The notes beneath the pieces are model-generated. The model did no database searches and was not told where the DNA came from. It worked only from the letters and a program-made list of their open reading frames with translations. 64,000 nucleotides of DNA from Pseudonocardiales bacterium (lineage in GTDB: Bacteria > Actinomycetota > Actinomycetes > Mycobacteriales > Pseudonocardiaceae), in assembly GCA_023252195.1 (NCBI GenBank), contig JAHEXI010000008.1:96980-160979 (forward strand). Reading direction: 5' to 3'. A program made the translations under genes and the position numbers. Below are positions 31,451 through 61,449 of the stretch, piece by piece (positions within the stretch are counted from its first letter, which is position 1; the number at the start of each line of letters is the position of its first letter).

Positions 31451-31525
31451 GTCGTGAACTCGACAGCACCGACCTTTTTCGTGCGCTCGCAGGTCGGTTT
31501 TGTCCGTGAACTCGACAGCACCGAC
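31451..31525. repeat. Family-B element locus B1: two direct copies of the left arm (one truncated element plus one solo arm)
   Basis: GTCGTGAACTCGACAGCACCGAC (31451-31473) ... GTCGGT(truncated) ... CGTGAACTCGACAGCACCGAC (31505-31525). Confidence 0.7.
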
Positions 31526-31618
31526 GTTCTTGCTGCTGCCTGTGGATGGTGCGGTGGGTGTGGATAGGTTGGCCTGCTAGAGGGCGCGTTGGCGGGGGCG
31601 TGGTGCAGGGTCTGAGGT

Positions 31619-32509
31619 GTGATCGACGAACTGACCCTCGGCGCTACGCCCTTCCGGGGATCCGGTGCTGTGCAGCGCGGGCTGCTCACCGAGCGGACGC
31701 TCCGCGGCCCCCGGTACCGGCGACTGTTCCCCGACATCTACCTGCTCGCCGATGTACCGACTGATCTCGCCACCCGATCGCAGGCGGCGCTGCTGCTCGT
31801 TCCGGGGCAGCGCGTACTGTCCGGTTACTCGGCAGCCGAACTGCTCGGGGCGGGTTGCGCGCCAGCGGAGGCTAACGCCGAGCTGACGGTGCCTGGCGGT
31901 GACTTCCGGGAACAACCGGGGCTCACTATCCACCGTGATCTGCTCGCGAACGACGAGATCGGCGACTGCGGCGGCGTCCCCGTCACTACAGCGCTGCGGA
32001 CGGCGTGGGACTTGGCCCGGTGGTTGCCCACAGTGGAGGCGGTGGTGGCGATGGACGCGCTGACCAGCGTTGGGCGGTTCACCTCGGCGACCGTGCTGCG
32101 CATCCAGGGTCGGTACCCGCGGGCGCGTTGGTGCCGTCGTGTCCCCGGGGTGATCGACCTGTCCGACCCCCGAGCCGAATCGCCCATGGAGACCCGCTCG
32201 CGGCTTGTGCTCGTGCTGCGCGGCCTGCCGCGTCCTGAACTGCAGTACACCGTGTACACGGCACTCGGGGAGTTCGTCGCCCGCCTGGACATGGCGTACC
32301 CGCTGCTGAAGCTGGCGATGGAGTACGACGGCCGGGGTCACCTCACCGCCTGGCAGCAGCAGTCTGATGCCCGCCGCCTCAACCGGCTGGACGCCTGCGG
32401 CTGGTCAGTACTCCGCTTCACCTCACCAGACGTCCTCCGCACCCCAGACGCCACAGCCGCCCAAGTCCGCGAGGCCATCGCGCGCCGCTCCCGGCGCTCC
32501 GTGTCGTGA
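31619..32509 (+). CDS. DUF559 (Vsr-like endonuclease fold) protein with AbiEi-like N-terminal domain
   Basis: C-terminal ESPMETRSRLVLVLRGLPRPELQY...LDMAYPLLKLAMEYDG..H...D..R.N.L...GW.VLRF is the DUF559 pattern. 296 aa. Confidence 0.8.
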   Translation: MIDELTLGATPFRGSGAVQRGLLTERTLRGPRYRRLFPDIYLLADVPTDLATRSQAALLLVPGQRVLSGYSAAELLGAGCAPAEANAELTVPGGDFREQPGLTIHRDLLANDEIGDCGGVPVTTALRTAWDLARWLPTVEAVVAMDALTSVGRFTSATVLRIQGRYPRARWCRRVPGVIDLSDPRAESPMETRSRLVLVLRGLPRPELQYTVYTALGEFVARLDMAYPLLKLAMEYDGRGHLTAWQQQSDARRLNRLDACGWSVLRFTSPDVLRTPDATAAQVREAIARRSRRSVS

Positions 32510-32567
32510 ACTCGACATTACCGACGGTTTTCGTGCGTTTATGCGTCGGTGGTGTCGAGTTCACGAC
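32503..32567. repeat. Family-B 65-bp palindromic element, copy B2
   Basis: GTCGTGAACTCGACATTACCGAC-19 nt-GTCGGTGGTGTCGAGTTCACGAC fills the gap between the convergent DUF559 and dprE2 genes. The TGA of DUF559 lies inside the left arm. Confidence 0.85.
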
Positions 32568-32572
32568 ACCGA

Positions 32573-33328
32573 TCAGATGGGGAGGCGGCGGAAGATGGGG
32601 CGGGGGACGTGGCGCAGGACGGACATGACGTGGCGCATGGGGGCGGGCGCCCAGGCTTGCTCGCGGCCGTTCGCGACGGCGTCGACGATGACCTCGGCGA
32701 CCTGCTCGGGAGTGACCGACAGTGGAGCGGCTTTCATGCCGGCGGTCATCTTGGTGTGCACGAAGCCCGGTCGGATCACCGAGACCTTGATACCCGCCGG
32801 GCGCAGCGCCTCGGTGAGACCGGTGTAGAAGGCGTCCAAGCCGGCTTTGCTGGCGCCGTAGGCGAAGTTCGACCGGCGGGGCCGTTCGGCGGCGGCCGAC
32901 GACAGTGCGACCAGCGTGCCGTGGCCTTGCCGTTGCAGCGCCTCGGCGAGCAGCACCCCGACCGACACGGCGCCTACGTAGTTGACCTGCGCGAGCTCGA
33001 CGGCGGTGGCGTGGTCGGTCCAGGCCTTCTCCTGGTCGCCGAGCAGCCCGAAGGCGACCAGGGTGAGGTCGATGTCGCCGTCGGCGAAGGCCTTCTCGAT
33101 CGTCGCGGCGTGCGATGCGGTGTCGGCCGCGTCGAAGGGCAGCGTCGTCACCGTGGCGCCGGCGCGGTCCAGCGGCTGCGCGGCGGCGTCCAGCCGCGGC
33201 GACGGGCGGGCGGCCAGGATCACCCGCAGCGGCCGCCGGGTGGCGTAGCGCTCCGCGGTGGCCAGCGCGATTTCGGAGGTGCCGCCGAGCAGCAGCAGGG
33301 ACTGGGGGTTGCCGACAGCATCGATCAC
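32573..33328 (-). CDS. dprE2: Decaprenylphosphoryl-2-keto-beta-D-erythro-pentose reductase
   Basis: SDR with [12 protein letters not shown], a YGASKAG catalytic motif, and an ATGA overlap with dprE1. 251 aa. Confidence 0.9.
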
Positions 33329-34677: not shown

Positions 34678-34720
34678 CGCCCGCAGGCTACCTCCACCCC
34701 GACATGGGGGCATATCGGGG

Positions 34721-37700
34721 CTATCGGGCCTGGTATAGCCCCGACATGTCCCCATATCGGGAGGACGGGACGTGGCTGGTGGTGTGCTGGTAGGTGTCGT
34801 GGGCGGCGGTGTCGGCGGAGAGTTGTAGGGCGCCCCAGTCGACGTCGGGGTGGCCGATCAGGCGGGTGGGGACTTCGTAGAGGCGGCCGTAGGGGCGGAT
34901 CGCGGCGAAGTCGCCACCCTGGTCCTGGGCCGTGGTGATCGCCGAGAGCCGGCCGAGGCGGCGGGGCGCCTCGATCACCACCCGGGGCGCATCGGCCAAC
35001 CCGTCGGCGACCCCGACGATGTCGCGCACGCAGGGGAACAGGAATGCCTGCGGCCAGCTCACCAGCACCGGCCCGCGGCCTGCCAGGAACTCGTTGAACC
35101 CGACGACGCTGCGCAGCCGGGGACCGGTGACGGCCAGCCAACCGTCCGGGTCGGTGCTGGCATCGGTCGCGCGGATCCGGACGCGGTCCGCGCCGACCGG
35201 GATCTGCGCCGCGTCGAGCCCGATGGACCGCCACGGGAGATAGTCCGGTGGGCCGTCCAGATGGTCCTGGTTGAGACGTACCCGGTCGTACGGGACGCGG
35301 TCCCCCATCGTGGTGACGCCGCCGTACCGAGCGCGGCCGAACTCCAGAACCAGCTTGTTGCCCCGATCGGTACGGCCCGACACCGAGACCGCCACCCCAC
35401 TGGCCGTTGGCTGCCGGAACCACGGGCTGGTCAGGGTTCCGGTGCTCCGCGGTCCGCCGACCAGACTTCCCCAGAGCTCGGTGGAGATCCCGGTGCCGGG
35501 CGCGTCCGGTGGTGGCGCCGCGGGATCGAAGCCGGCCAGGGCGGTGAACCCGGTCAGTTGCTGCGCGGGACCGGGGCCGAACACGCCAACAGGGGACAGT
35601 ACGGGGCCGTCGGGCAGCACCTGGATGTCGTCGGCCAGGCCGCAGAACGGGCCGCCGGTCAGCCGATGCAGGTTCATTAGCGCGAGGGAACCGGCTGGCC
35701 GACGCAGCGGTGCGGCCAGCAACGAGCCGAGCAGTACCGCCACCGCGGTACCGGCCGCCGCCACCGCGAGCATTGCGGGCGTAGCGACCAGCGTTGGCCG
35801 GCTGACGCGGGCGGCGGCGAGCACCGCGTAACCCACCACCAGCGCGCCGAGCCACAGCAGTGGAGAGTCCAGCGGCAGCCCGATCGGGCGCACCGGGCCG
35901 GCTGCCCATGGCACGTCGTAGACCGCCGGCTGCCACCAGGCGTTCGGGCCGGCGAAGGCCAGCCCGGCTGCCGCGGCCACCAGTACGCCCCCGGCCACGC
36001 CGATCGTCTGGGACATCCGGTCGGCCCCCGGCGCCCTGGCGCGCCGCACCAGCAAGACCACAGCCAGCACCAGGAAGGATGCGAACAAGCCGGCCAGGGC
36101 GCCGAAGTGATGCGACCATTTCGACGGCGTCAACCACAGCAGCGCCAGTGCGGTGGCTACCACAGCAGCCGACCGCGCAGCGGCGCCGCCATAGACGTCG
36201 GCTCGCTCGGCCCGGCGGGCCAGCAGCACCCCGACCACCGGCAGTAGCGCGAGCGTGAGCAGAACCGGGATTCGTTTGGTAGCGCTGCCGTCCTGGTCAT
36301 TTCCGAGCAGGAAACGGTACCGGTCCGGCTCCTGGTACCAGGGCAGCGACGGCCCGAAAAAGGTGTGCCAGCGGGTCGCGGTCACCAGCCCATACCAGGT
36401 CTGGTCAGCGAAGATCACGGTAAGGCCGACCGCGCCGACGCAACCCAGAAGCAGCACCCGCGCCGCCACCTCAGCCCGCCCGCGCGCCGACTCGCGCAGG
36501 ATCGCCACGGTGCGCGGCGCGAACACCACGATCGGGGCGGCGACGAGCAGTCCGCTGGGGCTGATCGGGATGGTCAGTCCGGCGACCAGTGCAGCCCACC
36601 CCAGCGCGGGGAGTCCACGAGCTCGCCACAGCAGCGCCAGTACAGCGGTGACGCCGAACGCCACGTACGGCTCGGGGCGCACCCCGAGGTTGTAGGGCAG
36701 CCAAGCGGCGAGCAGGCACACCGCCGCCAGCAGCCGGATCCGGACGGTGCCCGCCACCGCGGGCAGCGCCGCGCCGAGCACCCCCCGGCTCAGCACGAAC
36801 CAGGTCGCGATAGCCAGCACGGTGCTGGGCAGCCGCAGCCACAGCGGCGCCAGGCTGATCTGGGTCAGCGGGGCGAGCAGTTGCTCGGTCAGCGCGAACG
36901 GTGTCTCCGAGGCGTTCCACCACCGGTAGTAGTTGCCGATGTTGCCGGTCCGCGCGGCGTTGCGGGCGATCGTGGTGGCGAAGCCGTCGTCGTCGGTCAG
37001 CGGACCGATGATCGCCCAGCCGGCCAGTACGCTGAGCACTCCCACGTCGACCCAGGCCGTGCGCCACCAACCGATGCGTGGGCGCGCGGGATCCTTGGCA
37101 GCACGACGAGCGCGGGCCAGCAGGCCGAGCCCGATCAGCGCGGTGAGCAGTTGCGCGGCGATGAGAACGATCTTGACCCGGCTCGGGCTGGTGGCGAATG
37201 GGCTGGCGATGCGGGCGGTAACGGCCATCCCAGCGGCTTGCCCGGCGTCGAGGTCGGTACGGAAGGCGAACACCTTGGGCACCGGTTCATCGGCCAGCTT
37301 GATCGTCTTAGTGCTCCCGATGGTGATCACTGCACCGGTCGGGTCGGCGTGCACCTGGGTCCGGCAGTCGCTGAAGGTTCCGGCCACCGGCTGGGTGCTC
37401 ACCACCCGGCGACCCAACACCAGCTGGGCCACGCCGGCTTCGGTCCGCAGCACCAACCCTTCCCCGTCCGGGCCGGTCGCCAGCACGGTGACGACACCGC
37501 CCCGGTCGGTCGCGGCGCGAATCGCCGAACACGGCACCGTCGCAGTCAGCTCCGCCGGCCGGTACGGCGCGAAAAACGCCGTACTCGACACCACGGGGTG
37601 CTGAGGCGCGGGCCAGGTCACCGCGGTCTGGTCCGCGATCACTGGCAGGAACGGCAGCACCAACGCCACCAACACCCCCAGCAGTCCCACCAGCAAGGCG

Positions 37701-37795
37701 AGTGCGGTGCCGGTAGACCGATGCGCAACCCTGGACAGCGCCAAGCCTCCCGCGGCGATCGTTCCTACCTCAGCTCTACCGTTCCCGAACTCCAC
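34721..37795 (-). CDS. Emb-family GT-C arabinosyltransferase, paralog 1
   Basis: About 1024 aa. First-loop DD motif [28 protein letters not shown], 13+ TM helices and a C-terminal carbohydrate-binding domain. The annotated GTG start lies inside repeat A2, so the true start is uncertain. Confidence 0.9.
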
Positions 37796-37844
37796 AGCAG
37801 AGCTGCCAGATCCTCCTCAGACAACTCTGTTGTGGAGTTCGGGA
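37781..37844. repeat. Family-A 64-bp palindromic element, copy A2
   Basis: GTTCCCGAACTCCACAGCAG-26 nt-CTGTTGTGGAGTTCGGGA lies between the helD stop and the Emb paralog 1 start. Confidence 0.85.
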
Positions 37845-37867
37845 TGCTGAGAGTACCGAGAGGCGCG

Positions 37868-40198
37868 TCAGGCGAGGTTGGGGGCGAGCACAGGGGGCAG
37901 GTCGCTGGGGTGCACGATGCACAGCCGTTGCGTCGAGCGGGTCAGAGCCACGTAGAGGTCGTTGAGACCGCGGGGTGACTCGGCCACGATCGCCGCCGGA
38001 TCGACCAGCACGACCGCGTCGAACTCCAGGCCCTTGGCCTGGTGCACGGTCAGCACGGTCACCGGTGCATCGAGGTCGTCGACGCCCGGCGCGCTCTGCT
38101 CTGATGACCCCAAGATCGTGCGCAGCTCGTCCACCCCAGCCGCCGGCGCGAGCACGGCGAGCCGGCCGTCGCCTACCGCGGTGGCCTCCTCGGCGACCAC
38201 CGCGGGCAACTCGTCGGCCAACGAGCCCACCCGAACCGCGCGGGGCGCCACGCCGCTGCGGCGCACCGACCGCGGCGGCGTGATGTCGACGTCGATGGCG
38301 GCTAGCACGCGGTCGGCGAGCTCCGCGATCTCGGCCGGGTTCCGGTAGTTGATCGTCAGCTCTTCCAGGTGCCACCGCTGCGCCACGTACGGACCGAGCA
38401 CGTCCTGCCACGAGGCCGCGCCGGCCCGGGACCCGGTCTGAGCGAGGTCCCCGACCACCGTCATCGAACGGCTCGGGCAGCGCCGCATGAGCACTCGCCA
38501 CGCCATCGGGGACAGCTCTTGGGCCTCGTCGATGATGATGTGACCGTAGGTCCAGGTGCGGTCCGCCGCGGCGCGCTCAGCGGTACTCTCGTAGCCGCGC
38601 GCCCGCTGCCGGTCGGCCAGCCGGTCGGCGTCGATCAGGTCGGTGGCGCGCAGCAGCTCAGGGTCGAGGTCCTCGTCGAGGTCCAGGATGTCCAGCACGC
38701 CCTGGGCGTACTGCAACTCCGCGCGCAGCGCGGCGGCCTCCCGGGCGGCCTCGGTGCTGCCGTCGGAGCCGAGCAGCTCGGCGGTCTCGTCCAGCAACGG
38801 CACGTCGGCGGGGGTCCACACCAGCTCGGGGTCGACGTCCGGGCTGGGCGCGGATCGCGCTAGCAGGTCGCGTTCCTGGTCCGGTAGCACCCGGTGGGTG
38901 GCGCTGGCCAGCCGCTGCGGATCGAAGTAGAGGTCGGTGAGCAGCTGCTCCGGCGACAGCGTGGGCCACAGCGTGTCCAGCGCAGCGGTCAGCTCGGGGC
39001 TCCCCCGTAACTCGGTGCGGATGTCCGCCAGGTCGCCACGGTTCAGAACGTCGCCGCCCAGGCCGTTGGCGATGCGGTCGGCGAGTACCGTCACGACCTC
39101 CTGGTGAAAGATCCGCTTGGCCTCGTTGTGTGGCCGGTGCGAACGCCGAGCCCTGGTGCGAGCCGGCTGGCACACCGCGCTGTCGAGCTGGATTCGCTGG
39201 GCCTCGACGGTGAGCTCGATCGGTTCGGTGGGTACCTGCTGGCGGTCCCGGATCGCTGCGGCCAGCACCTTCGCCATCTCCAGGCGACCCTTGACGGCGG
39301 CGGTCTCGTCGGGCTCGACGCCGCGGGCGTGCAACCCCGGATGCAGCTGCGCCACCGTGCACAGCAGCACGCTGGTCTCGCCTAGGGAGGGCAGCACGTG
39401 CCCGATGTAGCGCAGGAACGTCGAGTTGGGCCCGACGACCAGCACGCCGCGCTTGGCGAGCTGTCGGCGGTGGGTATAGAGCAGGTACGCGGCCCGGTGC
39501 AGCGCGACCGCGGTCTTGCCGGTGCCCGGCCCACCCTGGACGACGAGCACTCCCTGCGGCTTGGCCCGGATGATCCGGTCCTGCTCAGTCTGGATGGTCG
39601 CGACGATGTCGGCCATCTGGCCGGTGCGGCTCGCCGTCAGCGCGGCCATCAGCGCCGCCTCGCTGGTCAGGCTGACCCGGGTGGCGCTGTGCTCGACACC
39701 ACCGTCAGGTAGCACGTCGAGCACTTCGTCCTCGACGGCGAGCACCGTCCGGCTCCGAGTCCGGATGTGTCGGCGGCGGCGAACACCCTCGGGGCGCGCG
39801 GCGGTCGCGGTGTAGAACGGGCGGGCCGCGGGTGCCCGCCAGTCGATCAGCAGCGGTCGGTAGTCGTGTTCCTCGTCGAGCAGTCCGAGCCGCCCGATGT
39901 AACGCAGACCGTCCTCGTCATCGTCCTCATCACCGGAGCTGTGCAGGTCCAGCCGCCCGAAGCACAGGCCCTGCTCGACGCCGTCGAGGGTGGCGAGTTG
40001 GTCTGCGTACATCGCGGCGGCGGCGTCGCGTTCGCTGCGCGCTTGGGGGGTGTTCGCGTTGGGTGCTCTCAGGACTTGGGTGAGCCGCCCCACGGTGTAG
40101 CGGCGGCGCTCATCGAGATGCTGGTAGAGCAGGGTGAGGTAGTCCTGCTCTGCCGCCACCACGTCGGGCGTTGTTGTGGGAACCGACACGCGATGCAA
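37868..40198 (-). CDS. helD: HelD/HelR-type UvrD-like SF1 ATPase (RNA polymerase recycling/protection factor, actinobacterial class II)
   Basis: N-terminal RYIGRLGLLDEEHDYRPLLIDWRAPAARPFYTATAARPEGVRRRRHI, Walker A VVQGGPGTGKTAVALHR, IIIDEAQE, and C-terminal VHQAKGLEFDAVVLV. 776 aa. Confidence 0.85.
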   Translation of the reverse strand: MHRVSVPTTTPDVVAAEQDYLTLLYQHLDERRRYTVGRLTQVLRAPNANTPQARSERDAAAAMYADQLATLDGVEQGLCFGRLDLHSSGDEDDDEDGLRYIGRLGLLDEEHDYRPLLIDWRAPAARPFYTATAARPEGVRRRRHIRTRSRTVLAVEDEVLDVLPDGGVEHSATRVSLTSEAALMAALTASRTGQMADIVATIQTEQDRIIRAKPQGVLVVQGGPGTGKTAVALHRAAYLLYTHRRQLAKRGVLVVGPNSTFLRYIGHVLPSLGETSVLLCTVAQLHPGLHARGVEPDETAAVKGRLEMAKVLAAAIRDRQQVPTEPIELTVEAQRIQLDSAVCQPARTRARRSHRPHNEAKRIFHQEVVTVLADRIANGLGGDVLNRGDLADIRTELRGSPELTAALDTLWPTLSPEQLLTDLYFDPQRLASATHRVLPDQERDLLARSAPSPDVDPELVWTPADVPLLDETAELLGSDGSTEAAREAAALRAELQYAQGVLDILDLDEDLDPELLRATDLIDADRLADRQRARGYESTAERAAADRTWTYGHIIIDEAQELSPMAWRVLMRRCPSRSMTVVGDLAQTGSRAGAASWQDVLGPYVAQRWHLEELTINYRNPAEIAELADRVLAAIDVDITPPRSVRRSGVAPRAVRVGSLADELPAVVAEEATAVGDGRLAVLAPAAGVDELRTILGSSEQSAPGVDDLDAPVTVLTVHQAKGLEFDAVVLVDPAAIVAESPRGLNDLYVALTRSTQRLCIVHPSDLPPVLAPNLA

Positions 40199-40278
40199 TC
40201 CACCTTCTGCGCTTCGACGGGGAACCTGGCACTAGAACCAGTGGGCGGCTTCGGGCATTCCAAGACACCGCGGGCCTT

Positions 40279-40335
40279 CAACTCTACAGTTCCCGAACTC
40301 CACAGCTGCAGGCCGAGGGCCTGCCAGATCTCCTC
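40279..40335. repeat. Family-A element, partial copy A3 (left arm and internal segment only)
   Basis: CAACTCTACAGTTCCCGAACTCCACAGCTGCAG..CTGCCAGATCTCCTC shares the internal CTGCCAGATC(C)TCCTC with A2. No right arm was found. Confidence 0.6.
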
Positions 40336-40560
40336 GAAAGCCGTAGGCCTAGCCGCCGCCTGAAGCAACCGTTGTAACGGCAGGAAGCCTCCTCATGTTC
40401 TGCACGCGGTCCGAGGTATCGTCGACTCGATACCACAGTAAACGGCCGGTCAGAGAAATCGGTAGTGATCTGTCGGTGGTGGCGGTTAGTGTCGGTGCTC
40501 GATCTACCAGCGCAACCTGCGCTGCCAACACCCCCATCGATGCCGTGAGGTGGCCTCCGC

Positions 40561-45100: not shown

Positions 45101-45130
45101 CCCGACGTCGCGGCCAGCGCGGATAGGCAC
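42101..45130 (-). CDS. Emb-family GT-C arabinosyltransferase, paralog 2
   Basis: 1009 aa. Has GPVNIDDSWYLLMARNA, LTPTKWVNHF and a C-terminal CBM-like domain. It is closest to paralog 3. Confidence 0.9.
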   Translation of the reverse strand: MPIRAGRDVGDRRRLGWVIAALALVTGVLGILVMLAPVIADDPVVSWPRAGQQPSSTVLPLSPYRPLQLTATVPCATLRALDARPGGGEALRTVPADVGTAPGEGLVVTADQGVVTVTASGAEVLRQALPGGPCSYQVLADAGGVRVTRDGAGIGTRTDLLVPQVAELQTDAVGASGLSVQLHTDARYQSHPTLLKTALLVAHGLALAALLVLAWRWWRGAGPGLVRPRPSWADAVVVAVSLFWVLAGPVNIDDSWYLLMARNAMQSGYLGNVIYQFNVTENPFVASQYVMQAWGALGGDWSLGWMRLLPLAYGLATYALLRVLVATALGRVAQRSLAAWAVAAAHLLWWLPYGMTLRPEPLIALGTAGVLVLSELARRRRSVGVFAVAVAVAALTVTASPTGLVAAAPLVVCLPWLWQWWRAESARSRVTAVLLVGAAASIVIPVAFADATLGDVLESVAVHRWYYRQYAWYDEYLHYADLLVPDERGAWGKRLPVLLTLGVLLAVALGAGRRPGTAGRSGRLLGEAAAITALGLAVLALTPTKWVNHFEAVAAPATVLLAAALIRSPLPRRVSAATMAIGSAGLVAAVSVAFAGPNLWRPLSDWGQPFGNHLLIDRPYDQSLLAPSLGPLALRNPLLWLAVAAVGWWWLRRLGPTRAVLVTATGLGVVLMLLVFTVAPLRQYPGTSVTLMNLRALTGRTCGLAPAVQALTTAKPGLGPAVGTAALTGDMRAAPLPESTPVPLRAPPNSTVWHDDVPSGTGTGSLQTPWYPLPGHLVDASVTVPMRGKLNQEQWLAVQVTTGDPTTGDPATPGQVRTVPLPAVGDKPDWTELTVALADAGLAAPTAVRVVAQDRVAGPNSWLAIAQPRLTAPRPVTDIIAGRPVFADQVSAALWPCEQQIAVRDGLVQPPALRLRAADGMEGSILYNSTFADNGGTLLQVDRTAKFVELPSQLTPPGAPTLGWGHVDEVIYLHPVDLVDLHVETLRRAGWTRLPTLIGQRYTGRVYTG

Positions 45131-45293: not shown

Positions 45294-46787
45294 GTGATTT
45301 CGGGGTCTGCGGTGGATGACGTCGTCCCGTTCGGTGTGGTCATCGCCATCATCAGCGTGGCTGGGCTGCTGGCGGTGTTGTCGAACCGGGTCAGCGAACG
45401 GATCCGGGTGCCGGCTCCAGCGATCTTCCTGGTAGCCGCCGCGGTTGCTTCGGACCTGGTACCGGCGCTGGGGCGGGTGCCCATTCTCACGGTGCAGCGG
45501 GTGGTCACCGTGATGCTGATCTTGTTGTTGTTCGACGGTGGTATGCACATCGGCTGGCGGCGGTTTCGCGCCGCTGGCGGCGGGGTGTTGTGGATCGGTG
45601 TGGTCGGCACTGTGGTCACCGCGGTGGGGGTGGCGGTGCTGGCGCACCTGGTGTTCGGGTTCGACTGGCGGGCCGGGCTGCTGCTGGGTGTCGCGGTGGC
45701 CCCTACTGACCCGGCCGTGGTGTTCTCGGTGTTGGGCCGCCGGGAGATCTCCGGCCGGTCGGGCACCCTGCTGGAGGGTGAGTCCGGGGTGAACGACCCG
45801 GTCGGTATCGCCGCGATGGCCGCGCTGCTGGCTGCCGGAACCGCCGGTGGCTGGCACGCCGTGGGCGCCGGGGTAGGCGAGTTCGCCCTGGAGATGGTCG
45901 TCGGTGCCGCGATCGGCATCGCGGCCGGGTACGCGTTGTCGGTGGCGATGCGCCGGGTACCACTGCCCAGCGGGGCGCTGTACCCGCTGCGGACCCTGTT
46001 GGGTGCCGGGGCGATCTACGGGCTGGCCAACCTGGCCCACGGGTCGGGGTTTCTCGCCGTGTTCGTCGCCGGAATCCTCGTCGGGGACCTGCGCGCCCCG
46101 TACAAGGCCGACATCGAACGGTTCCACTCGTCACTGGCCAGCTTGGCGGAAATCGTCGCGTTCGCCATGCTCGGCCTGACTGTGTCCCTGACTGGGCTGG
46201 CTCACGGCACCGCCTGGTGGGTCGGTCTGGCCTTGGCGGTGCTGCTGGCCCTGGTGGTGCGCCCGGTGCTGGTCGGGCTGCTCCTGCTGCCCATCAAGAT
46301 CAATAATGGTGAGCGGGTGTTCGTGATGTGGTCCGGGCTCAAAGGCGCGGTGCCTATCCTGCTGGGCACCTACATCCTGTCCGCCGGCGTACCAGGGGCC
46401 GACCGCCTGTACCAGATCGTGGTCGTCGTGGTGGCGTTCTCGGTGATCGTGCAGGGCGGCCTGGTGCCTACCGTGGCCCACCACACGGGAGTGCCCATGC
46501 GGGTCCTGCAACCCGAACCCTGGGCGCTGGGCATGCGTTTCCGCGACGAGCCCACCGGCTTGCACCGCTACGACGTCACCGCCGGCGCTCCCGCGGACGG
46601 CTGCACCATCGCCGACCTCGCGCTGGGCGAGGACACCTGGATCAGCATGATCAACCGGAACGGTGTCCTGGTACCCGTCCGCGGCGGCACCGTGCTGCAG
46701 GCCGGTGACGAGGTGCTGCTGCTGGCCGACCCGGACACCGACACCGACCCGCAGCCGCTGTTCACTCCGCGTCGCTCGACGTCGTGA
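45294..46787 (+). CDS. CPA1-family K+(Na+)/H+ antiporter with C-terminal RCK_C (TrkA-C) domain
   Basis: LLFDGGMH..., APTDPAVVFSVL, LLEGESGVNDPVGI, and C-terminal ...GGTVLQAGDEVLLLA. 497 aa. The stop codon lies within repeat B3. Confidence 0.85.
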   Translation: MISGSAVDDVVPFGVVIAIISVAGLLAVLSNRVSERIRVPAPAIFLVAAAVASDLVPALGRVPILTVQRVVTVMLILLLFDGGMHIGWRRFRAAGGGVLWIGVVGTVVTAVGVAVLAHLVFGFDWRAGLLLGVAVAPTDPAVVFSVLGRREISGRSGTLLEGESGVNDPVGIAAMAALLAAGTAGGWHAVGAGVGEFALEMVVGAAIGIAAGYALSVAMRRVPLPSGALYPLRTLLGAGAIYGLANLAHGSGFLAVFVAGILVGDLRAPYKADIERFHSSLASLAEIVAFAMLGLTVSLTGLAHGTAWWVGLALAVLLALVVRPVLVGLLLLPIKINNGERVFVMWSGLKGAVPILLGTYILSAGVPGADRLYQIVVVVVAFSVIVQGGLVPTVAHHTGVPMRVLQPEPWALGMRFRDEPTGLHRYDVTAGAPADGCTIADLALGEDTWISMINRNGVLVPVRGGTVLQAGDEVLLLADPDTDTDPQPLFTPRRSTS

Positions 46788-46844
46788 ACTCGACAGCACG
46801 GACGTTTCGGCGCCGAAAAATGTCGGTACCGTCGAGTTCACGAC
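46781..46844. repeat. Family-B 64-bp palindromic element, copy B3
   Basis: GTCGTGAACTCGACAGCACGGAC-18 nt-GTCGGTACCGTCGAGTTCACGAC lies between the convergent antiporter and vapC. Confidence 0.85.
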
Positions 46845-47556: not shown

Positions 47557-50500
47557 TCAGTCGGTGGCGTTTCCGTGGTAGCTCTTGGCGGCGAGGGTGG
47601 GAAGGCGCGTCCAGCCGGCCCTGCGGACCGCGTGGACGTGCAGGTCGACCAGCCCGACGGGGTGGTCGTAGACGACCCGCTCGACCCGGCCCCAGGGCAA
47701 CGTGGGCGGCCCGCTGGGCACCAGCCGGGCGGGCATCCGCACGGCAGTGCCGGAGCGGCTCACCGGCACCTCAGTGCCGCCCCGGTGCAGCTCGAACCCG
47801 AGATCGAGGAAGCCCCGGCCGAAATCCTCGTCGCTAAGCAGCAGCACCTGGGGGGCACGGGCGATGCCATGATCGACGCCGACCTGGTCGAGGCAGGGCA
47901 ACAGCGCCGCGGTGAGCTGGTCGACGTACACCGGCCGGCTGGCGATAAACGTCGTCAGCGGACGCCACGTGGCCAGCCGCGGCTGGCCTACCGCAAGCCA
48001 GCTGTCGGCATCGGTCTCCATCCAGTCGCGGATCACCACCCGCACGCTCGACGGCCGCTGCTTGCCGAGCCGGTCCAGGGCAACGGCTGCTTGGTGCCAC
48101 TGGGTCCTGGGCACGGCCGGGTCCGGCCGCAGCGATGCGCTGCCCGCCACGGCGGGGTTGCGCCCAGCGGCGGTGGCGTACTCCAGGGTCAGCTGCTGGG
48201 CGGCTCGAGCGCCGAGCAGCGGGACCAGCAGGGTGCTGCCACCATCGGGTGGCAGCGCGAACCACGGCGTGACGAGCAAGCCCGCCGGGCTCGTCAGTGA
48301 GCTCGTGTCCGGGTCGCTGCGCAGGTCGGTGTCGACGGCGTCGTGCCAGACCAGCGTGCCCGGATTCGGCGCGGGCACTGGCTCGGGTAACGGCCGGTTC
48401 GCGGCAGCGGCGAACCCACCCTCGGTGATCGCCGATCCGACCGGCACCGGTTGTGCCGGTATGTCGACTAGGACCTGTGCGTAGTCGGCCAGTGAGCACG
48501 GTTGGCCTTGGACCGCCCGAACCGCAGACAGGGCCACCGACCAGCCCGGATACTGCCGCAACGGCGCCCACCAGAAGACCACGATGATCATCACCACCAT
48601 CGCCGTCGAGCCGGTCAGCAACACCGCTCGGTCGGGAGTCAGTGCCGAGTCCCGATCGCGGCGCCGCCGCCACCACATCCATCCGCCTGCGGCCACCGCG
48701 ACCGCCACCCAGACCAGCGGGTTTGCCAGCTGCACGGGGCCCAGCTTCGGGCGCATGCCCACCAGGTCGGGGTGGTCCGCGGACGCGGTGAGGTGGTTGC
48801 CGAAGGGCTGGCCGCGGTCGGAATAGGGCCGCCACAGGTTGGGCCCGGCGAAACTCCAGGACACCGCACCGATCATCAGCGCTGTCCCCACCGTGGCCGC
48901 GAGGACGCTGGCACGATGGCGCCGCAGACCAGCCTGCACCGCGGCCAACAGCGGGGAGCGCAGCAGCGCGGCGGCGAGCAACACCATGGGCGCGGCCGCC
49001 GCCGCCCCGAAGTGGTTGACGAACTTCGTCGGCGTCGGAGCCAGTAGCGCCAAGGCCAACGCCGAGCACCCCGCACTGCTCACCAGCAACCGCCGCACCG
49101 GATCGTCGCGGTCCCCGTTGCCTGACTCTGCGCTTCCCGAACTGCACAGCAGTGCTGTCCGCAGCCGGGTGAACAGCGCTGCTGTGGAGCTCGGGAAGCG
49201 CAGCGCACGTGAGCAGTTCAGAGCGACGACTAGCAGGACGGCGATTGTGAGCACCACAGGGGCTCGGCGGGCCCACTGGCTGGAATCCTCGAAGCTCAGG
49301 ATCGTCTTGTAGTGGACGTTCTCCTGGTACCAGGAGAACGTCTGGTAGTACCACCGGTGCACTGCGGCGGACTCGAGCACGTCGCCGAGCGTCGCGTCGG
49401 CGAATCCCACCAGCACCAGGCTGGTGCTCGCGGCGGCCAGTACCAGGACCGCAGCCACCCGCGCCGCGGCGCGCTGTGCGCGCAGCCACCGCCACAGCCA
49501 CGGCAGGGCCAGCACCAGCGGTGCGATGGCGACCAGCCCGGACGGGGAGACCGACATCGCTAGCGCGGCGGTGGCGGTGGCGGCGGCGAGCGCGCCGACC
49601 GAGCGGCGTCGCCGGGCCAGCTCCGCCAGCAGCAGCGTCGCAGCGGCCAGCAGCACGATCAGCGGTTCGGGACGCAGCGTCATTCCGTAGGGCAGCCACC
49701 ACAGCAGGTAGGCCACCAGCAGCGCCCAGGTAGCCCGGCTGGTGTCCAGCTCGCGACCGAAACCCGCAACGAGCAGCAGGCGCAGCAGCAGCCAGGTGAC
49801 CAGCCCGTAGGCCAGCGGCACCAGCCGCATCCACGCCAGGCCCCACCCGCCGAGCGAACCCCACAGCTGCAGCACGTACTGGCTGGCCACGAAGGGGTTC
49901 TCGGTAACGTTGAACATGTAGATCGCATTGCCGACCGACCCTGAGGCGTTGGCACCGCGGGCCATCTGCATGTACCAGGAGTCGTCGAAGTTCGTCGGAG
50001 CCAGCAGCACCCACATCGCCGAGACGACGACTAGCACGGCGTCAGCGACGTGTAGGCGAAGTCGCGCGGGTGCAGCGGTTATCGGCTGGGCGCCCCACCA
50101 CCGCCAGGCCAACCCGAGCAGCATCAGCAGGGCCGCGGCGCAGGTCACTAGCAGTCCGGTCTTCAGCGCTGTCGGGGTGGATTCATAGCGGGCATCGGTG
50201 TGTAGCGACACCGCCAACCCCGACGCCGCCGGCTGGCCGTCCAGCTCGGTGGTCAGCTCGCTGACCTCCGGTACCTGCACCGACGCAGAGCCGCGTCGCA
50301 GCCCGTCGCGCAGTACCCGCACGCCGCCGGCGTCGGCCAATACCCGGTAGGTACACCCGCCGTCCGGCAGCACCTCGCGCAGCACCGTCCGGCCCGAGGC
50401 GGTCACCTGCACCGTGCCGCCGTGGACCGCGACGACCAGACCCTGGCTGAGCTGGCCCGGCTTGCCGGCGGTGGCGGGCAGGGTGCGCAGCGCGTCGCCG

Positions 50501-54400: not shown

Positions 54401-54799
54401 GACCTGCAGCACCATCCCGACCGCGGCACCGTCGGTCGACCCGGGCGGGGTGGTGGCCAGCAGCGAGGCAGGCTGCGGCGACCGCGCATCCAACGAGACT
54501 GCCGCAGCGCACGGGATCGTGGCGGTCATGTTCTGCGGCTGGTAGGTGACCAGCGGCGCGTTGACCGGCGCGAGGTCTCCCGAGCGTGGCCAGGTGATCA
54601 CGGTGGTGTCCTGGATCACCGGCAGCAGCGGCACCGCAATGGCGAGCAGAGCTCCGAGCAGGCCGAAGAATGCCGCGGCGAACCCGAGTAGCCGGGAGCC
54701 GCGGTTGCGCTTGTTGCCAGTGTCGGCGGTCGGATCGGTAGCGTCGCCGCCAGTACTCGAGCGGCGGCGCGAGATCTCGATGTGCCCAGAGGTCAGCAC
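51476..54799 (-). CDS. Emb-family GT-C arabinosyltransferase, paralog 4 (longest; EmbC-like length)
   Basis: 1107 aa. Has GGITSDDGYILTMIRTRA, LTPTKWTHHF and a C-terminal CBM-like domain. Confidence 0.9.
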   Translation of the reverse strand: MLTSGHIEISRRRSSTGGDATDPTADTGNKRNRGSRLLGFAAAFFGLLGALLAIAVPLLPVIQDTTVITWPRSGDLAPVNAPLVTYQPQNMTATIPCAAAVSLDARSPQPASLLATTPPGSTDGAAVGMVLQVDAGKLTLISRGQALGNVLLSTIPPSPRQCMIQVSSDARGTTASAGALRFVKVDQDVRPQVTGIYSALIDQRDPVRGLAVRITADTRFQSVPHPIKLAAIAAAVLAVLVSLILMHRLDRRIGRRAPRVLPSGWWRPTGRDAAVLAVLAVWVVIGGITSDDGYILTMIRTRAEMGYIGNYYRWFNAPEAPFSWPYELYALWSQISTVPPWLRLPSFAMGGVSWMLISREVMPRLGREVRRSAAAGWAAAAVFLAFWLPYNNGLRLEPVVAIGSLLALCGVERAVATRRVLPLALALLAAAFTVAATPTGFIAIAPFLVSLRPLVRLVRQHITVSGRAAVLGPILGAGLLVLVVCFADQTLAGVLEASRIRTEIGPNLSWFQEPMRYEELFSNLPDGALARRFPVLLLLLCLGTTGVVLLRRGRIPGAGLGPSRRLIGTAGASLVLLALTPTKWTHHFGAFASIGAALAALTALTASSSVLRSARNRWWFLSGLLVILAMSATGPNAPWYVSQYGVPWYDKPPSVHGIQASTLLIVGAVLAGLIAVIEGLRHEPGAVPPPGPPQPQRRNGRRRALLIGSAPLAVFCGLLVLAEVGAMAKAIVKQRHGYSMGAANFAEITGHSCNLTDAVLVEADRRAGALRPLRTTLLADIPLQRGFETNRSPLEQALPTSPPSQLTGSGTNDRADNQGARGDRIPKPGDDGSNPVDKPPIGLGGPEIPIWSSFSPDTPGTGILRSTWYALPAAARQGTAPVVVSVAGRLSATTPLVAEFARRTDRGFRVVDHMEIGGRATADGPGWRDYRLGLAGRASAGADAVRLVATDADVTDDGWLAFSAPRVPVLSSLTDLVAPTPPVFLDWPVGFVHPCVRPFAIRNGIAEIPQYRLLPDKMLANDSKSWSAADAGGPIGWLQILATQQEVPTYLKENWDTDWGKLMVIQPRVPDAEAPVLQTGTAVRSGWWSPGPLRSGGQTAEISQLGR

Positions 54800-57456: not shown

Positions 57457-57537
57457 GGTCCGCGAGGGTACCCGTGCGGTCTCCGGACCCCCGGCCTGCG
57501 GGTGCGCCAGCCGCTGCCCGCGCCCGGTCCACCAAGC

Positions 57538-57601
57538 TTCCCGAACTCCACAGCGGAGCTGTCCGACGTTGATCAAACAGCGCTGCTGTGGAGTTCGGGA
57601 C
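57538..57601. repeat. Family-A 64-bp palindromic element, copy A5
   Basis: CTTCCCGAACTCCACAGCGGAGCTGTCC-11 nt-ACAGCGCTGCTGTGGAGTTCGGGAC lies 82 nt upstream of the rfbD start. Confidence 0.85.
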
Positions 57602-57649
57602 ACCCAGAGTTCGGGGGACGCAGGGCACGCGAGTGCGGAGGGGGGAACT

Positions 57650-58122: not shown

Positions 58123-58184
58123 CGGGAGTGTTGAACAGCTGCTAACGGATTTTTTGGCCGGCTGCTAATGGGCGGGCTCCTCGT
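58116..58184. repeat. Three phased direct repeats CTGCTAAYGG with an exact 23-bp period
   Basis: Copies at 58116, 58139 and 58162, between or overlapping the convergent 3' ends. A T6 run lies in unit 2. Confidence 0.5.
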
Positions 58185-59409
58185 TGACGTCGAGGTCGGG
58201 TTGTTCGGCGTAGCTGAAGGTGATGGGGGCGACCTCGGTGCGCGGGTGGTACGAGGGGTCGAGCCGGACGAGGTCCCACTCGTTGATCCAGGCCCGCACG
58301 TACTGGCGCATCCGGGTGGTGCCCAGGCGTTCCAAGCCGGTCACCTCCGGGGCGTTCCAACCGAATGCCTCGGAGTGCAGGGCCTTGAGCCGCTGGTAGG
58401 CGTAGTCGAGCTCGTCGGCGTCGGGGGTGGTGAGCAGCAGCATGTCGCGCTCGATCAGACCCATGGCGGTCTGCGCCCGGGTGGCGATCTCGTCCCATTC
58501 GGCTACCTGCTTGGCGCGCAGCTTCGCCGGGACCACCTCCCGGTCGTTCTTCGCCGTGAGCACCGCGGCGTCGAAGTCGTCGGTCATGGCCAGCACGGTC
58601 GCCAGCGGCGACGCGGGGTCGTCAGTGTCGGGTTGCAGCCACTGGGCCAGCTCGGCGTAGGAGCGGCCGCGTTGCTGCAAGGTGTAGCGCCCGATCAGCT
58701 CGACCTCGTCGAACAGCAGTACCCAGCCCTCGCAGCCGGCGGTGACGAGCAGCCGGGCCAGGAAGCGGAATCGCTGACGGGCCAGCTCCCGCGCGGGCAC
58801 CGGGGCCAGCGCCGGACGTCCCAGCCCGGCGAACTTGGCGTGCCGGCGTACTTCAGCGACGGCCAGACGATCCCCGGACCAGAACCTGACGATCGCGTCG
58901 GCGAAGTTGTCCTCGCTGGCCTGCACCCGCGGGAACAGGGTCAGCGTCAAGGGAAACCACTCGTCGACCGGGGCGCCGGCGCCACCGGCCCAGCGCACCA
59001 GCTCGGCGAAGGCCACGCCGTCGGGATCCAGGCCTGCGGCTGCCTCGGCCATCGCGCCGACCGACCCGTCGGGCAACACCGCGGATTCCACCGCGGCGCG
59101 CAGCACCTTGGCCGGGTCGTGCAGCGGCGTCTCCTTGCTGACCACGATGCGGCTCACCGCGTACCCGCGGTCCAGGGCCAGGTGGGTCAGGTGTTCCAGG
59201 ACGTGGCTCTTGCCCGCGCCGAACCCGCCACCGAGCAGCAGCCCCCGTGGTCCGGAGCGGACCTGACCGATCCCGTCGATCAAGGTGGTGAACCGGTCCT
59301 CGATGTCGGACTGGCCGCTGCCCAGCGCGGTCACCGCGTCCCTGCTGGGCACCCCCGCCCGCAGGGCCTCGACCGCGCGCCGCGCGGTGAGCCGGACCGA
59401 CGTATTCAT
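58165..59409 (-). CDS. DUF2791/BrxC-BrxD(PglY)-type P-loop ATPase (third gene of orphan cassette)
   Basis: ARRAVEALRAGVPSRDAVTALGSGQ.., Walker A LLLGGGFGAGKSHVLEHL and Walker B GWVLLFDEVELIG. 414 aa. ATGA overlap with the upstream gene. Confidence 0.7.
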   Translation of the reverse strand: MNTSVRLTARRAVEALRAGVPSRDAVTALGSGQSDIEDRFTTLIDGIGQVRSGPRGLLLGGGFGAGKSHVLEHLTHLALDRGYAVSRIVVSKETPLHDPAKVLRAAVESAVLPDGSVGAMAEAAAGLDPDGVAFAELVRWAGGAGAPVDEWFPLTLTLFPRVQASEDNFADAIVRFWSGDRLAVAEVRRHAKFAGLGRPALAPVPARELARQRFRFLARLLVTAGCEGWVLLFDEVELIGRYTLQQRGRSYAELAQWLQPDTDDPASPLATVLAMTDDFDAAVLTAKNDREVVPAKLRAKQVAEWDEIATRAQTAMGLIERDMLLLTTPDADELDYAYQRLKALHSEAFGWNAPEVTGLERLGTTRMRQYVRAWINEWDLVRLDPSYHPRTEVAPITFSYAEQPDLDVNEEPAH

Positions 59410-60413
59410 CGAACCACCTCCAGGCGGGTCTCCAGCCGGACCAGCGCGGCGAACGGGTTGGCGCGGCGGCGGTCCCGGATCTCGTCGACGACCCGCAGGT
59501 GCAGGGCGCTGTAGGCGGGCAGGCCACGGGTGTCGTCAGTGACCAGCTCAGGTGGCACCGTCACCGCGACGAACGCGCTGCGCAGGTTGTCGGTGGCATC
59601 GACGAGCTGGCGCAGCACCTCGTAGGCATCGAGCACTGCGGCCTTGCTGTAGTAGTGGCCGGCGCGCTGTTCCAGCGGGGGGCGGCGGGCAACTGCGAGC
59701 CGGCTCAGGTCGACGTCCAGTACCAGGCCCGACCCCGTGACGCGGGCCCGCCACGCCGCCAGCGACACCAGCAGCGACCGCGCGTTGTGCCGGGCGACCC
59801 GCCCGTACAGGGTTGCGGACTTCAGCATCCGCAGTGCGACCGGCTCGACCCGCAGCCAGGCCAGCACCGCATCGCGTTCGGTGTCGAGGACGTCGCCGGT
59901 GGCGAGCTCGCACTGGCACAGCCGCAATACCGCCAGCCGGAACTCCCGGTCCAGCGACGGGTCGCGCAGCAACGCGGCCTCCAGGTGCCGGCGCATGCTC
60001 CGGGCAGCCTCCGGCACGGCGACGTCGTGGTGCGCGGCGACCGTGGCCACCGCCAGCTCGTCAGGCGCGGACGGGGGCAGACCCAGCGATTCCCACCCGG
60101 CGCGCACCTGGCGTCGTGCGAGATCGCACCAGTCGACCTGGCGGGCGACGGCGGCGAAGACCTGATCGATCAGGTGCACCCGGTGATCCGCCGCGTCCAC
60201 CGCGACGCACAGGTAGCCCTCTGCGTCGGCGATGGACGCCAGGCTGCGGTGCCAGCGAACCGCAACCTCGTCGCTGCCGGCCACGACGAAGCGCACCGCG
60301 GCCCCGCCAGCGCGGACGTAGTCGCCCAGGTACTCCTTGGCCACGAATTCGGCGTACTCCTCGGGTCCCAACCCGATCCCGCCCGCAGGCAGGCCGCCAC
60401 GGATCTCGCTCAC
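59406..60413 (-). CDS. Hypothetical protein, apparent Walker-A-less paralog of the adjacent ATPase (second gene of cassette)
   Basis: 335 aa. AVRFVVAGSDEVAVRW..AEGYLCVAVDAA..VHLIDQVFAAVA aligns by eye to the ..LLLGGGFGAGKSH..DRGYAVSRIVVS..LHDPAKVLRAAV core of the ATPase. GLVLDVDLS sits at the Walker-B position. GTGA overlap upstream. Confidence 0.55.
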   Translation of the reverse strand: MSEIRGGLPAGGIGLGPEEYAEFVAKEYLGDYVRAGGAAVRFVVAGSDEVAVRWHRSLASIADAEGYLCVAVDAADHRVHLIDQVFAAVARQVDWCDLARRQVRAGWESLGLPPSAPDELAVATVAAHHDVAVPEAARSMRRHLEAALLRDPSLDREFRLAVLRLCQCELATGDVLDTERDAVLAWLRVEPVALRMLKSATLYGRVARHNARSLLVSLAAWRARVTGSGLVLDVDLSRLAVARRPPLEQRAGHYYSKAAVLDAYEVLRQLVDATDNLRSAFVAVTVPPELVTDDTRGLPAYSALHLRVVDEIRDRRRANPFAALVRLETRLEVVR

Positions 60414-61300
60414 CCTGTGTCCTCCTCACCCCGACCGGACTCACTGCCGGTAGGGCCCGACTCGACCGCGATGCCCCAGTACCGCTGTTGCTGCCCGCTC
60501 ATGGCCACCGTGGTGAGTACACCGGCCTGGCGGGTGCCCGAACTCGCAGCCCAGCGCAGCCGCCGCCCGCCGGGACCGGCGGTCTCACCGCTCTGGTCGA
60601 GCAGGTACAGATCGCGGGCGAACTCGGCGCGGGTGTAGTCCCGGGACTGCCCGGGCAGCAGCGTCAGAGCGTTGTAGACCTCAAGCAGCCGCACCACCGA
60701 GCCCGGCGGCTTGGCCTGCCCGGCGACGACGAGATCGTAGGCGCCGACCAGGCTCGCCAGGAACGGCGCCGGCTTGAACCGGGGCCCGGCCCGCTGTGCC
60801 TTGGCGAGCTGTGCGACCACGACCGATGGTCGGATCCCGCGGGCCCGCTTGCGGTCGATCTCCAGCGCGAGGTCGCCGGGCAGCACCCGCACGATCGACG
60901 GGTAGCACAGCAGCCGGTCGTCCTCGGCGAACATAGCGACGTCCGCGGCTTCGGCCTCGGCGAGCAGCTCCTTGGCGTAAGCACCAGAGCCGAGCATGTC
61001 GACTTCGTCGACGTCGTAGGCAGTGGCCGCAGCGCCCACTCGCTGCACGACCTCACCGGCCATCGCCTGCACCGCGTCCAGGGCCCGGCGCAACTCCCTC
61101 ACCTGGCCCGACGCGGCCGCAGCGTGGGCCCGCTTCAGCTCGCGAGTCAGCGAGGCGACGGCCTTGCTGCTGGTCTCCACCGCACGCTCCACCCTGGTGA
61201 GCGCGCCCTCCAGACCGGCCGTGTCCTGGCTGCTGCTTGCTTCCTCGTCCTGCATGGGCGACAGGGTATCCACCAGCTCGCCGCACGATGCCCCGCCCAC
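60410..61300 (-). CDS. Hypothetical coiled-coil protein (first gene of cassette)
   Basis: 281-296 aa (GTG 61300 or ATG 61255). The N-terminal helical/coiled-coil half reads LTRVERAVETSSKAVASLTRELKRAH... The C-terminal half is globular (..VVRLLEVYNALTLLPGQSRDYTRAEFARDLYLL..). I recognise no family. Confidence 0.55.
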   Translation of the reverse strand: MGGASCGELVDTLSPMQDEEASSSQDTAGLEGALTRVERAVETSSKAVASLTRELKRAHAAAASGQVRELRRALDAVQAMAGEVVQRVGAAATAYDVDEVDMLGSGAYAKELLAEAEAADVAMFAEDDRLLCYPSIVRVLPGDLALEIDRKRARGIRPSVVVAQLAKAQRAGPRFKPAPFLASLVGAYDLVVAGQAKPPGSVVRLLEVYNALTLLPGQSRDYTRAEFARDLYLLDQSGETAGPGGRRLRWAASSGTRQAGVLTTVAMSGQQQRYWGIAVESGPTGSESGRGEEDTG

Positions 61301-61384
61301 ATGCCTGAGTTGAGATTGCCGCTCGACGCGGGGTCTTCGGCAGCGTCGCCCCGAGATCGTCGGGGTGCGCCGAAGACGGTCGCT

Positions 61385-61449
61385 GCCGTGAACTCGACGG
61401 TACCGACATTTCGCTGGGCGAAAAGGTACGTATTGTCGAGTTCACGGCA
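61385..61449. repeat. Family-B 65-bp palindromic element, copy B4
   Basis: GCCGTGAACTCGACGGTACCGAC-19 nt-GTACGTATTGTCGAGTTCACGGC lies in the divergent spacer between the cassette and the CocE-like gene. Confidence 0.8.

Follow-up and report, generated by a model that had tools for sequence, protein, structure and literature searches.

Palindromic repeats bracketing a predicted DUF559 nuclease gene suggest a new kind of repeat-plus-enzyme mobile system in Pseudonocardiales

Short palindromic repeats are common, and their origin is mostly unknown outside the Proteobacteria. To my knowledge, the enzyme behind such repeats is known only for the systems in which repetitive extragenic palindromic (REP) sequences, or their doublets (REPINs), depend on a REP-associated tyrosine transposase (RAYT). 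In the REP/REPIN-RAYT systems of Enterobacteria and Pseudomonas, dozens to hundreds of short palindromic extragenic copies form several families per genome, favour gene 3′ ends and persist for long at orthologous sites, and a single enzyme gene is bracketed by repeats. The same features are seen in a palindromic repeat, here called family B, of a 64-kb window from an uncultured soil bacterium of the Pseudonocardiales (contig JAHEXI010000008.1; the window is the whole stretch analysed, positions are given in its coordinates, and L numbers denote related loci fetched for comparison). However, the host of B is an actinomycete, and the bracketed gene encodes a DUF559 protein, predicted to be a winged helix joined to a PD-(D/E)xK nuclease and not an HUH tyrosine transposase. 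A GTAG or CGTC tetranucleotide is said to have been described by Di Nocera et al. in 2013 as conserved at the REP end. B lacks this tag, and it forms one long hairpin with two blocks per arm rather than the two inverted REP hairpins of a REPIN. On balance, I lean towards the reading that B elements are REP/REPIN-like, with the DUF559 nuclease as their partner in place of a tyrosine transposase. A wider proposal is put forward more tentatively: Mycobacteriales-type actinomycetes may have an undescribed repeat-plus-enzyme class, analogous to REPIN-RAYT, in which palindromes of about 64 nucleotides (nt) are recognised, cut and propagated by a cognate DUF559 protein whose gene lies between two copies.

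The TRIT ('tuberculosis Rho-independent terminator') motifs of Mycobacterium, described by Gardner et al. in 2011, are also palindromes of gene termini. Their about 150 bidirectional copies are conserved in sequence and structure, often start before the stop codon, are placed tightly around it (about -8) and are reported to be restricted to Mycobacterium (PMC3152330). Compared by description, TRIT and B are alike as symmetric palindromes at gene termini. In contrast, B is spread more widely around stop codons, with some copies in divergent regions, and TRIT is not known to have a DUF559 link. The hosts are related: the loci analysed here are labelled Pseudonocardiaceae or Pseudonocardiales, and GTDB presumably places Pseudonocardiaceae within Mycobacteriales. 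The mycobacterial CGAAA(N19)TTTCG pair is absent from these loci. The IS200/IS605 insertion sequences and the palindrome-associated transposable elements (PATEs) resemble the DUF559 unit in having an enzyme gene between hairpin-forming ends, no target duplications, and short non-autonomous hairpin derivatives. The enzyme fold differs from that of IS200/IS605, and the DUF559 unit ends on both sides in a full 64-nt palindrome of the same type, where IS200/IS605 elements have subterminal hairpins that differ between left and right.

Gene models in the window rest on Pfam and on gene calls made for the same contig in a metagenome; the window also has matches among metagenome contigs. The 20-nt arm GTGAACTCGACAGCACCGAC has seven matches in the window at three or fewer mismatches, where shuffled sequences are expected to give 0.02. 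Inspection of the sequence located all four B loci listed in the first-pass annotation, and two of them bracket the DUF559 (MTES_1575) gene (31619..32509, plus strand, 296 amino acids). B1 (31451..31525), at the upstream terminus of the unit, starts 14 nt past the UbiA stop and lies 93 nt ahead of the DUF559 gene. It is a rearranged copy, as had been proposed from its tandem left arms. The left arm (31451-31473) is followed by a loop, by the inner right block GTCGGT (31493-31498) and by a second left arm in direct orientation (31505-31525), which replaces the outer right arm, and B1 folds no better than its shuffles (z = 0). The ortholog of B1 in L042 is an intact element. B2 (32503..32567), an intact copy at the downstream terminus, has the DUF559 stop in its left arm and takes up the space before a convergent dprE2-like gene on the minus strand (32573-33328), whose stop is 5 nt away. 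B2 and the solo copies B3 (46781..46844) and B4 (61385..61449) form hairpins of 26-29 bp on either strand (-37 to -49 kcal/mol; z-scores from -5.8 to -9.7). The leader of the DUF559 gene (31526..31618, plus strand) contains two TGTGGAT motifs, at 31541-31547 and 31559-31565, which could be promoter or autoregulatory operator elements. The TGTGGAT / TTGTGGAYAACTCGGGGGT motifs are conserved (window 31541-31565; L198, L200 and L206) across clades whose proteins are only 57% identical.

The DUF559 protein matches PF04480 with 34.3 bits (cutoff 20.6), and residues D224, E235, D237, G238 and H241 are invariant across clades. An AlphaFold model (pLDDT 91.6) was compared with known structures by Foldseek. 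The C-terminal domain matches the catalytic domain of the homing endonuclease I-Bth0305I (3R3P; target-normalised TM-score 0.76-0.77, rmsd 2.5 Å), the whole protein matches Rv2827c, which I take to be an AbiEi-type winged-helix DNA-binding protein, and a further match is the DUF559 structure 3HRL. On this modelling, the protein is predicted to consist of an N-terminal AbiEi-type winged helix and a C-terminal Vsr-like PD-(D/E)xK nuclease of the homing-endonuclease type. It would share with I-Bth0305I (PD-(D/E)xK, Vsr-like; PDB 3R3P) both the catalytic fold and a selfish-gene lifestyle that stems from a sequence-specific cut. I-Bth0305I is phage-encoded and, in the work of Taylor et al. in 2011, reportedly lies within an intron, whereas the DUF559 gene is free-standing, carries an AbiEi-type winged helix and is flanked by complete palindromes.

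Is the bracketing of a DUF559 gene by palindromes a recurrent feature? Loci of DUF559 homologues were fetched by protein identity alone, and the homologues fall into several clades. B copies lie on both sides of the gene in L042, L133/L135 and L125 as well as in the window, a 45-nt remnant lies between two B copies in L132, and a DUF559 remnant lies between two A copies (family A is described below) in L122. In L203, a 72% ortholog has B/A-hybrid palindromes on both sides. Group-2 genes are about 57% identical to the window protein, 83-89% identical among themselves, and occupy four different loci. The flanks are of family D on both sides in L200 (FtsK / MazE-PIN) and L206 (WD40 / ccdA), and of family D downstream in L198 (WD40 / resA). 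In L205 (ubiA / dprE2), an A copy lies upstream and an A-like copy with three tandem left arms lies downstream. A group-3 gene at a ThiF locus (L201) has perfect palindromes of family H on both sides. In the eight scored loci (47 kb; L211 and L213 were added later and are unscored), 8/8 strong palindromes adjoin the DUF559 gene (binomial p = 2e-9). The genes between other close B pairs, which have PAP2 and ParB/SDR neighbours, are ordinary and have none in common.

The four group-2 units were aligned. Homology starts at the upstream palindrome in three units, L198 being without one, continues through a conserved leader of about 150 nt and the ORF (open reading frame), and ends at the downstream palindrome in all four. 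In addition, L213 carries a group-1 gene that is 80% identical to that of the window but lies at a second locus, beside a Peptidase_S11 gene, with its stop codon still in a B arm. Closely related genes at different loci are a criterion for free-standing homing endonucleases, and they were found here for group 2 at four loci and for group 1 at two. A unit composed of palindrome, leader, DUF559 gene and palindrome occupies different chromosomal places in related genomes. B1 has two left arms in tandem, and the A-like copy (L205:3385-3500) has three. Both copies lie beside DUF559 genes, and the duplicated arms may be a footprint of the mechanism.

The same comparison bears on another explanation, in which the palindromes exist on their own and serve as targets of a free-standing DUF559 gene that resembles those of homing endonucleases. 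After cleavage of a solo palindrome, repair would copy the gene in, and the flanks would be its target and not its termini. Wherever both flanks are present, they belong to the same family. A group-2 gene is flanked by A at ubiA-dprE2, and the other group-2 genes are flanked by D. The predicted catalytic domain resembles I-Bth0305I, and the units lie at gene 3′ ends, where solo copies usually sit. However, classical homing would split the target, while here complete palindromes are found on both sides. The stop codon of the gene lies in the downstream arm at two group-1 loci and in L201; since these loci differ, the 3′ palindrome, at a minimum, moves together with the gene. Nor would this explanation account for where the solo copies came from and how they spread. 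I regard this explanation as a minority possibility, and the partnership of palindromes and nuclease as the better account of the units.

A similar layout was found beyond the clade, in Tsukamurella tyrosinosolvens NCTC13231. One DUF559 gene there (32% identity) is bracketed exactly by two 64-nt palindromes (ACATCTTTCGAAGCGTTCTG...; L215:1339-1402 and 2290-2353; NZ_LR134454.1) that are unrelated in sequence to those described above. Solo copies with 81-88% identity occur in seven other records of the assembly, and the three checked (3/3) lie between convergent genes, 3-8 nt from a stop codon. Since this cultured species has the same layout, ordinary experiments are possible. The 'plasmid' records of the T. 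tyrosinosolvens assembly look like chromosome fragments.

The B family at large was scanned in one genome per species with the query GTGAACTCGACNNNACCGAC. At least 115 stretches match, most of them in metagenome-assembled genomes (MAGs) of uncultured Pseudonocardiaceae or Pseudonocardiales, and among the listed matches many have both arms about 39 nt apart. The family is thus present in many genomes of uncultured Pseudonocardiaceae. Single-arm matches in Streptomyces, Bradyrhizobium and others, some from other phyla, were dismissed as chance, being inside coding DNA and without a partner arm. Conservation was assessed on 69 full B copies collected through the conserved arm. The element measures 58-59 nt between the GTGAAC cores and 64-65 nt once the G-Y-C flank is included. 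Each arm has two blocks that hardly vary, CGTGAACTCGAC and ACCGAC (GTGAACTCGAC is also written for the block that accompanies ACCGAC). Between the blocks lies a 3-nt spacer, for which pairing is seen in no more than about 55% of copies, and the loop varies freely. Immediately beyond the core there is a covarying pair (U-A in 26, C-G in 23), and palindromy ends 3-5 nt beyond the core. Each arm alone forms a self-stem of at most 4 bp (GTCG..CGAC), and the element folds as a single hairpin. It is therefore the base sequence of the arms that is conserved and not merely their pairing, a constraint which points to recognition by a protein. Readings of B as parS, an operator or dif were rejected on copy number and position. 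A reading as an integron attC site, considered for the AAC...GTT ends, was also rejected, since the neighbours are housekeeping genes in convergent orientation and the core departs from the attC consensus RYYYAAC/GTTRRRY.

Could B be an ordinary REP/REPIN mobilised by a RAYT encoded elsewhere? Copy density, extragenic location, vertical persistence and the coexistence of several families would fit the REPIN-RAYT systems (PMC3116915; bioRxiv 10.1101/2021.07.10.451892). On the other hand, B has no conserved GTAG/CGTC end tag. Its flank is G-(T/C)-C with a covarying middle base, and CGTC occurs in only some copies. A single arm is not itself a hairpin of the REP type, and RAYT systems in Actinobacteria are not reported in the literature searched. 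The DUF559 gene is the only gene found repeatedly bracketed, which is not decisive, because no Y1 transposase profile search of all ORFs was made. A RAYT as the mobilising enzyme thus seems improbable to me, and a DUF559 nuclease remains the preferred partner.

In the MAG CP_BM_ER_28, a B copy lies within a composite repeat of about 265 bp, sometimes in tandem (L036:4380-4640, L087, L047, L045, L106). The composite has at least five copies at roughly 95% identity (about 93-97% by blastn), and it resembles either a larger element that was active not long ago or a repeat that has taken up a B copy. This composite, which looks recently mobile, is what speaks for B elements being miniature inverted-repeat transposable elements (MITEs), which have terminal inverted repeats and target-site duplications and here would stem from an insertion sequence with a DDE transposase. 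However, no consistent 2-8 nt direct repeats flank the 69 copies at any boundary offset, the palindrome spans the whole element instead of being confined to short inverted ends that enclose unrelated DNA, and no insertion sequence with matching ends was seen. A MITE origin is accordingly given very little credence. A search of the literature with the arm sequence returned chance primer matches only and found no description of the B repeat. Rfam 15 gave no match in the whole window at gathering or permissive thresholds, with only sub-threshold look-alikes of miRNA hairpins at B2.

Both persistence and turnover can be followed at orthologous sites. The window, L042 and L088 all carry B2, and there the flanks have about 81-87% nucleotide identity, the arms are intact and the loops are unalignable. 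Likewise, L006/L051 and L003/L017 keep the arms while their loops diverge and little of the intergenic DNA around them can be aligned. With the DprE2-like protein as query, a metagenome scan found 80 orthologous loci, and the dprE2 3′ end was compared among relatives with 80-94% protein identity. This end carries B in L125 and L132-L135, half a B in L129, family A in L122, family D in L120 and a direct repeat in L126; no palindrome was found there in nine loci (L118, L119, L121, L123, L124, L127, L130, L131 and L137). The ubiA-dprE2 junction ranges from an empty 19-nt spacer (L131) to a complete B-DUF559-B unit. Since arms are kept at orthologous sites and dprE2 ends vary, the elements are stable over long times and yet are gained, lost and exchanged between families. 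Taken together, the palindromes behave like REP elements: many solo intergenic copies lie mostly just past stop codons or between convergent genes, are inherited vertically for long, and undergo gain, loss and replacement.

The exchange between families leads to family A, which the first-pass annotation had suggested to form, with B, two subfamilies of one element type with the same overall length. Several results support this. A covariance model built from B copies only matches A end to end with 28-36 bits (57531-57608, 49127-49204, 37775-37852 and 9056-9133). B/A intermediates exist (CCCGAGCTCGACAGCAGAGCTG in L041 and TCCGTGAACTCGACAGCAG in L203), an A element occupies exactly the site of B2 in L122, and DUF559 genes are flanked by A as well as by B. 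The 64 kb contain four B and four to five A copies. The A copies lie between tandem genes (9063..9126), between an Emb-like gene and a UvrD-like helicase gene (37783..37844), in frame within the Emb-like ORF 47557-50757 on the minus strand (49128..49203), and at a further match of the B model (57539..57600); a half copy at 40290..40309 has the left arm only. The copy at 49128-49203 encodes LRFPSSTAALFTRLRTALLCSSGSAE within an insertion that is missing from the three window paralogues of the Emb-like gene, and the ORF remains open through all three Pfam domains. Rickettsia palindromic elements (RPE) also lie in frame within protein-coding genes, as this copy does; they are longer than the families described here, mainly coding, and unrelated in sequence and host. 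I know of no enzyme associated with RPE.

A survey of palindromes in all loci gave at least five families (A, B, C, D and H) and further groups, nearly all of 60-68 nt. These five families measure about 62-66 nt. A GAAC core is common to A, B and H, while D carries its complement. The family C palindrome (CCCGACATGGGGGCATATCGGGG...; 34698..34761) has the same 64-nt geometry, and the B-only model matches this third palindrome (34691-34768) at 18 bits. Family C (CCCGAYATGGRGACATATCGGGG) is kept upstream of dprE1 in the window (34698-34761) and in L125:2398-2463, L133:2536-2600, L121:1057-1120, L006:4294 and L084:4894; a different palindrome (4996-5057) occupies this site in L042.

Where do the B copies lie relative to genes? 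B3 lies between an Na+/H+ exchanger gene, whose stop is held in the B3 arm, and a convergent PIN-domain gene 21 nt away. At both B2 and B3, the TGA within GTCGTGAAC is the stop codon of the upstream gene, and these two copies do fill whole convergent gaps, as had been noted before. The claim that every B copy sits precisely at a gene end is incorrect, because B4 lies in a divergent promoter region: on one side a gene on the minus strand starts (60410-61300), on the other an S15 peptidase gene on the plus strand (61542-63497). Divergent settings also account for about 10% of the copies found elsewhere. Among 49 classified copies, 23 are convergent, 21 tandem and 5 divergent; 12 convergent copies are expected at 1:2:1 (p = 0.0008). 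The stop codon of the neighbouring gene is the TGA of GTGAAC in 8/70 copies, and the rest lie from 9 to more than 100 nt from a stop. In tandem contexts, no U-tract and no T enrichment is seen in the 15 nt past the hairpin in the sense orientation, and G-U is not favoured over A-C mismatches on the sense strand (29 vs 30). With neither a U-tract, nor a G-U bias, nor a target-site duplication, the B element is a symmetric feature of the DNA and no canonical terminator.

These contexts bear on the explanation in which the palindromes are kept in place as RNA structures, that is, as bidirectional factor-independent terminators or TRIT-like 3′-end protectors, with the nearness of DUF559 being incidental. 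The hairpins are very stable on both strands and are enriched between convergent genes and just past stops, sometimes with the stop inside the arm. TRIT motifs likewise overlap stop codons (PMC3152330). The different families found at one junction could reflect a need for some hairpin. Since the convergent enrichment is compatible with a 3′-end role as well as with tolerated insertion sites, it does not settle a terminator role. Other results are harder to accommodate. Besides the missing U-tract and sense-strand bias, base sequence is conserved over pairing, and the 3-nt spacer is paired in only about half of the copies. B4, like about 10% of copies, is in a divergent region, one A copy is translated in frame, nine close relatives do without a palindrome at the dprE2 end, and the DUF559 association has p of about 2e-9. 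Moreover, for TRIT, the closest analogue described, predictions match only 2-4% of mapped Mycobacterium tuberculosis transcript ends (bioRxiv 10.1101/2022.06.01.494293). The earlier suggestion that the repeats probably act as bidirectional terminators is thus not demonstrated, although some terminator role may exist, and I consider a role as RNA structure alone unlikely.

Under the preferred reading of B as REP/REPIN-like elements with a nuclease partner, the winged helix of the DUF559 protein would recognise the two conserved blocks of an arm. Such recognition would explain why base sequence, and not only pairing, is kept. The nuclease would then cut the palindrome, either as a duplex or as an extruded hairpin, and repair of the break or recombination between palindromes could bring copies of the palindromes to new sites, at times together with the gene enclosed by two of them. 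A solo copy might persist because a strong hairpin past a stop codon would be harmless, or mildly useful as an RNA 3′-end structure.

Several points weigh against this reading. No DUF559 gene or remnant was found beside solo B copies, so the link is limited to the gene-flanking copies, solo copies outnumber units roughly 40 to 1, and the data do not account for the spread of solo copies. Flanking palindromes are absent from four DUF559 homologues (L208, L210, L211 and L214, the last from Tsukamurella), and two have one on the downstream side only (D in L198, B in L213). There is no one-to-one match between palindrome families and DUF559 clades: B or A accompanies group 1, and D or A accompanies group 2. 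Because the 69 copies were collected through the arm, their apparent conservation is inflated and partly built in; the orthologous-site comparisons are free of this bias and few in number. Gene calls in the fetched loci were made by a crude codon-position GC method. A RAYT or another transposase may be encoded elsewhere in the genome, the sequence covered being the window and the fetched loci. Cleavage, binding and movement are all inferred.

With these points in mind, the palindromes bracketing a nuclease gene that is found at different loci suggest a new kind of repeat-plus-enzyme mobile system. The literature search found nothing that ties DUF559 to repeats or mobility. The DUF559 partnership, if real, would be new within the theme of REP plus enzyme, and the B family itself also appears to be new. 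If the reading is true, the DUF559 proteins, which form a large orphan family in Actinobacteria (relatives of pathogens among them), would gain a testable role, and 'terminator' motifs with conserved sequence, such as TRIT, would have a possible explanation. It would also offer a possible cause for rearrangements in the essential cell-wall arabinan cluster, namely the insertion and loss of a gene at ubiA-dprE2, the inversion of a palindrome-bounded emb gene and the in-frame insertion in an Emb paralogue.

This cluster (30528-56000) comprises UbiA, DprE2-like and DprE1-like genes and four Emb-like arabinosyltransferase paralogues (34721-37816, 42101-45130, 47557-50757 and 51476-54799), and it is interrupted by the UvrD-like helicase gene (37868-40231) and an MFS transporter gene (40549-42054). 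The Emb-like segment 34780-37678 is inverted relative to L088:2382-5313. It is bounded in the window by the C palindrome (34698-34761) and an A palindrome (37783-37844), and the L088 junctions are without palindromes. The PIN-domain gene that adjoins B3 (VapC-like; 46866-47554, minus strand) is preceded by a small ORF that is probably its antitoxin. Near B4, two neighbouring ORFs (58165-60413, minus strand) have matches to BrxC/BrxD-like ATPases of BREX-type defence, and the ORF beside B4 (60410-61300) encodes 296 amino acids without a Pfam match. Finally, a perfect 16-bp GC-rich hairpin (CAGGTGCCCCCGCCCG...) at 13860-13899, outside the repeat families, looks like an ordinary terminator-type stem.

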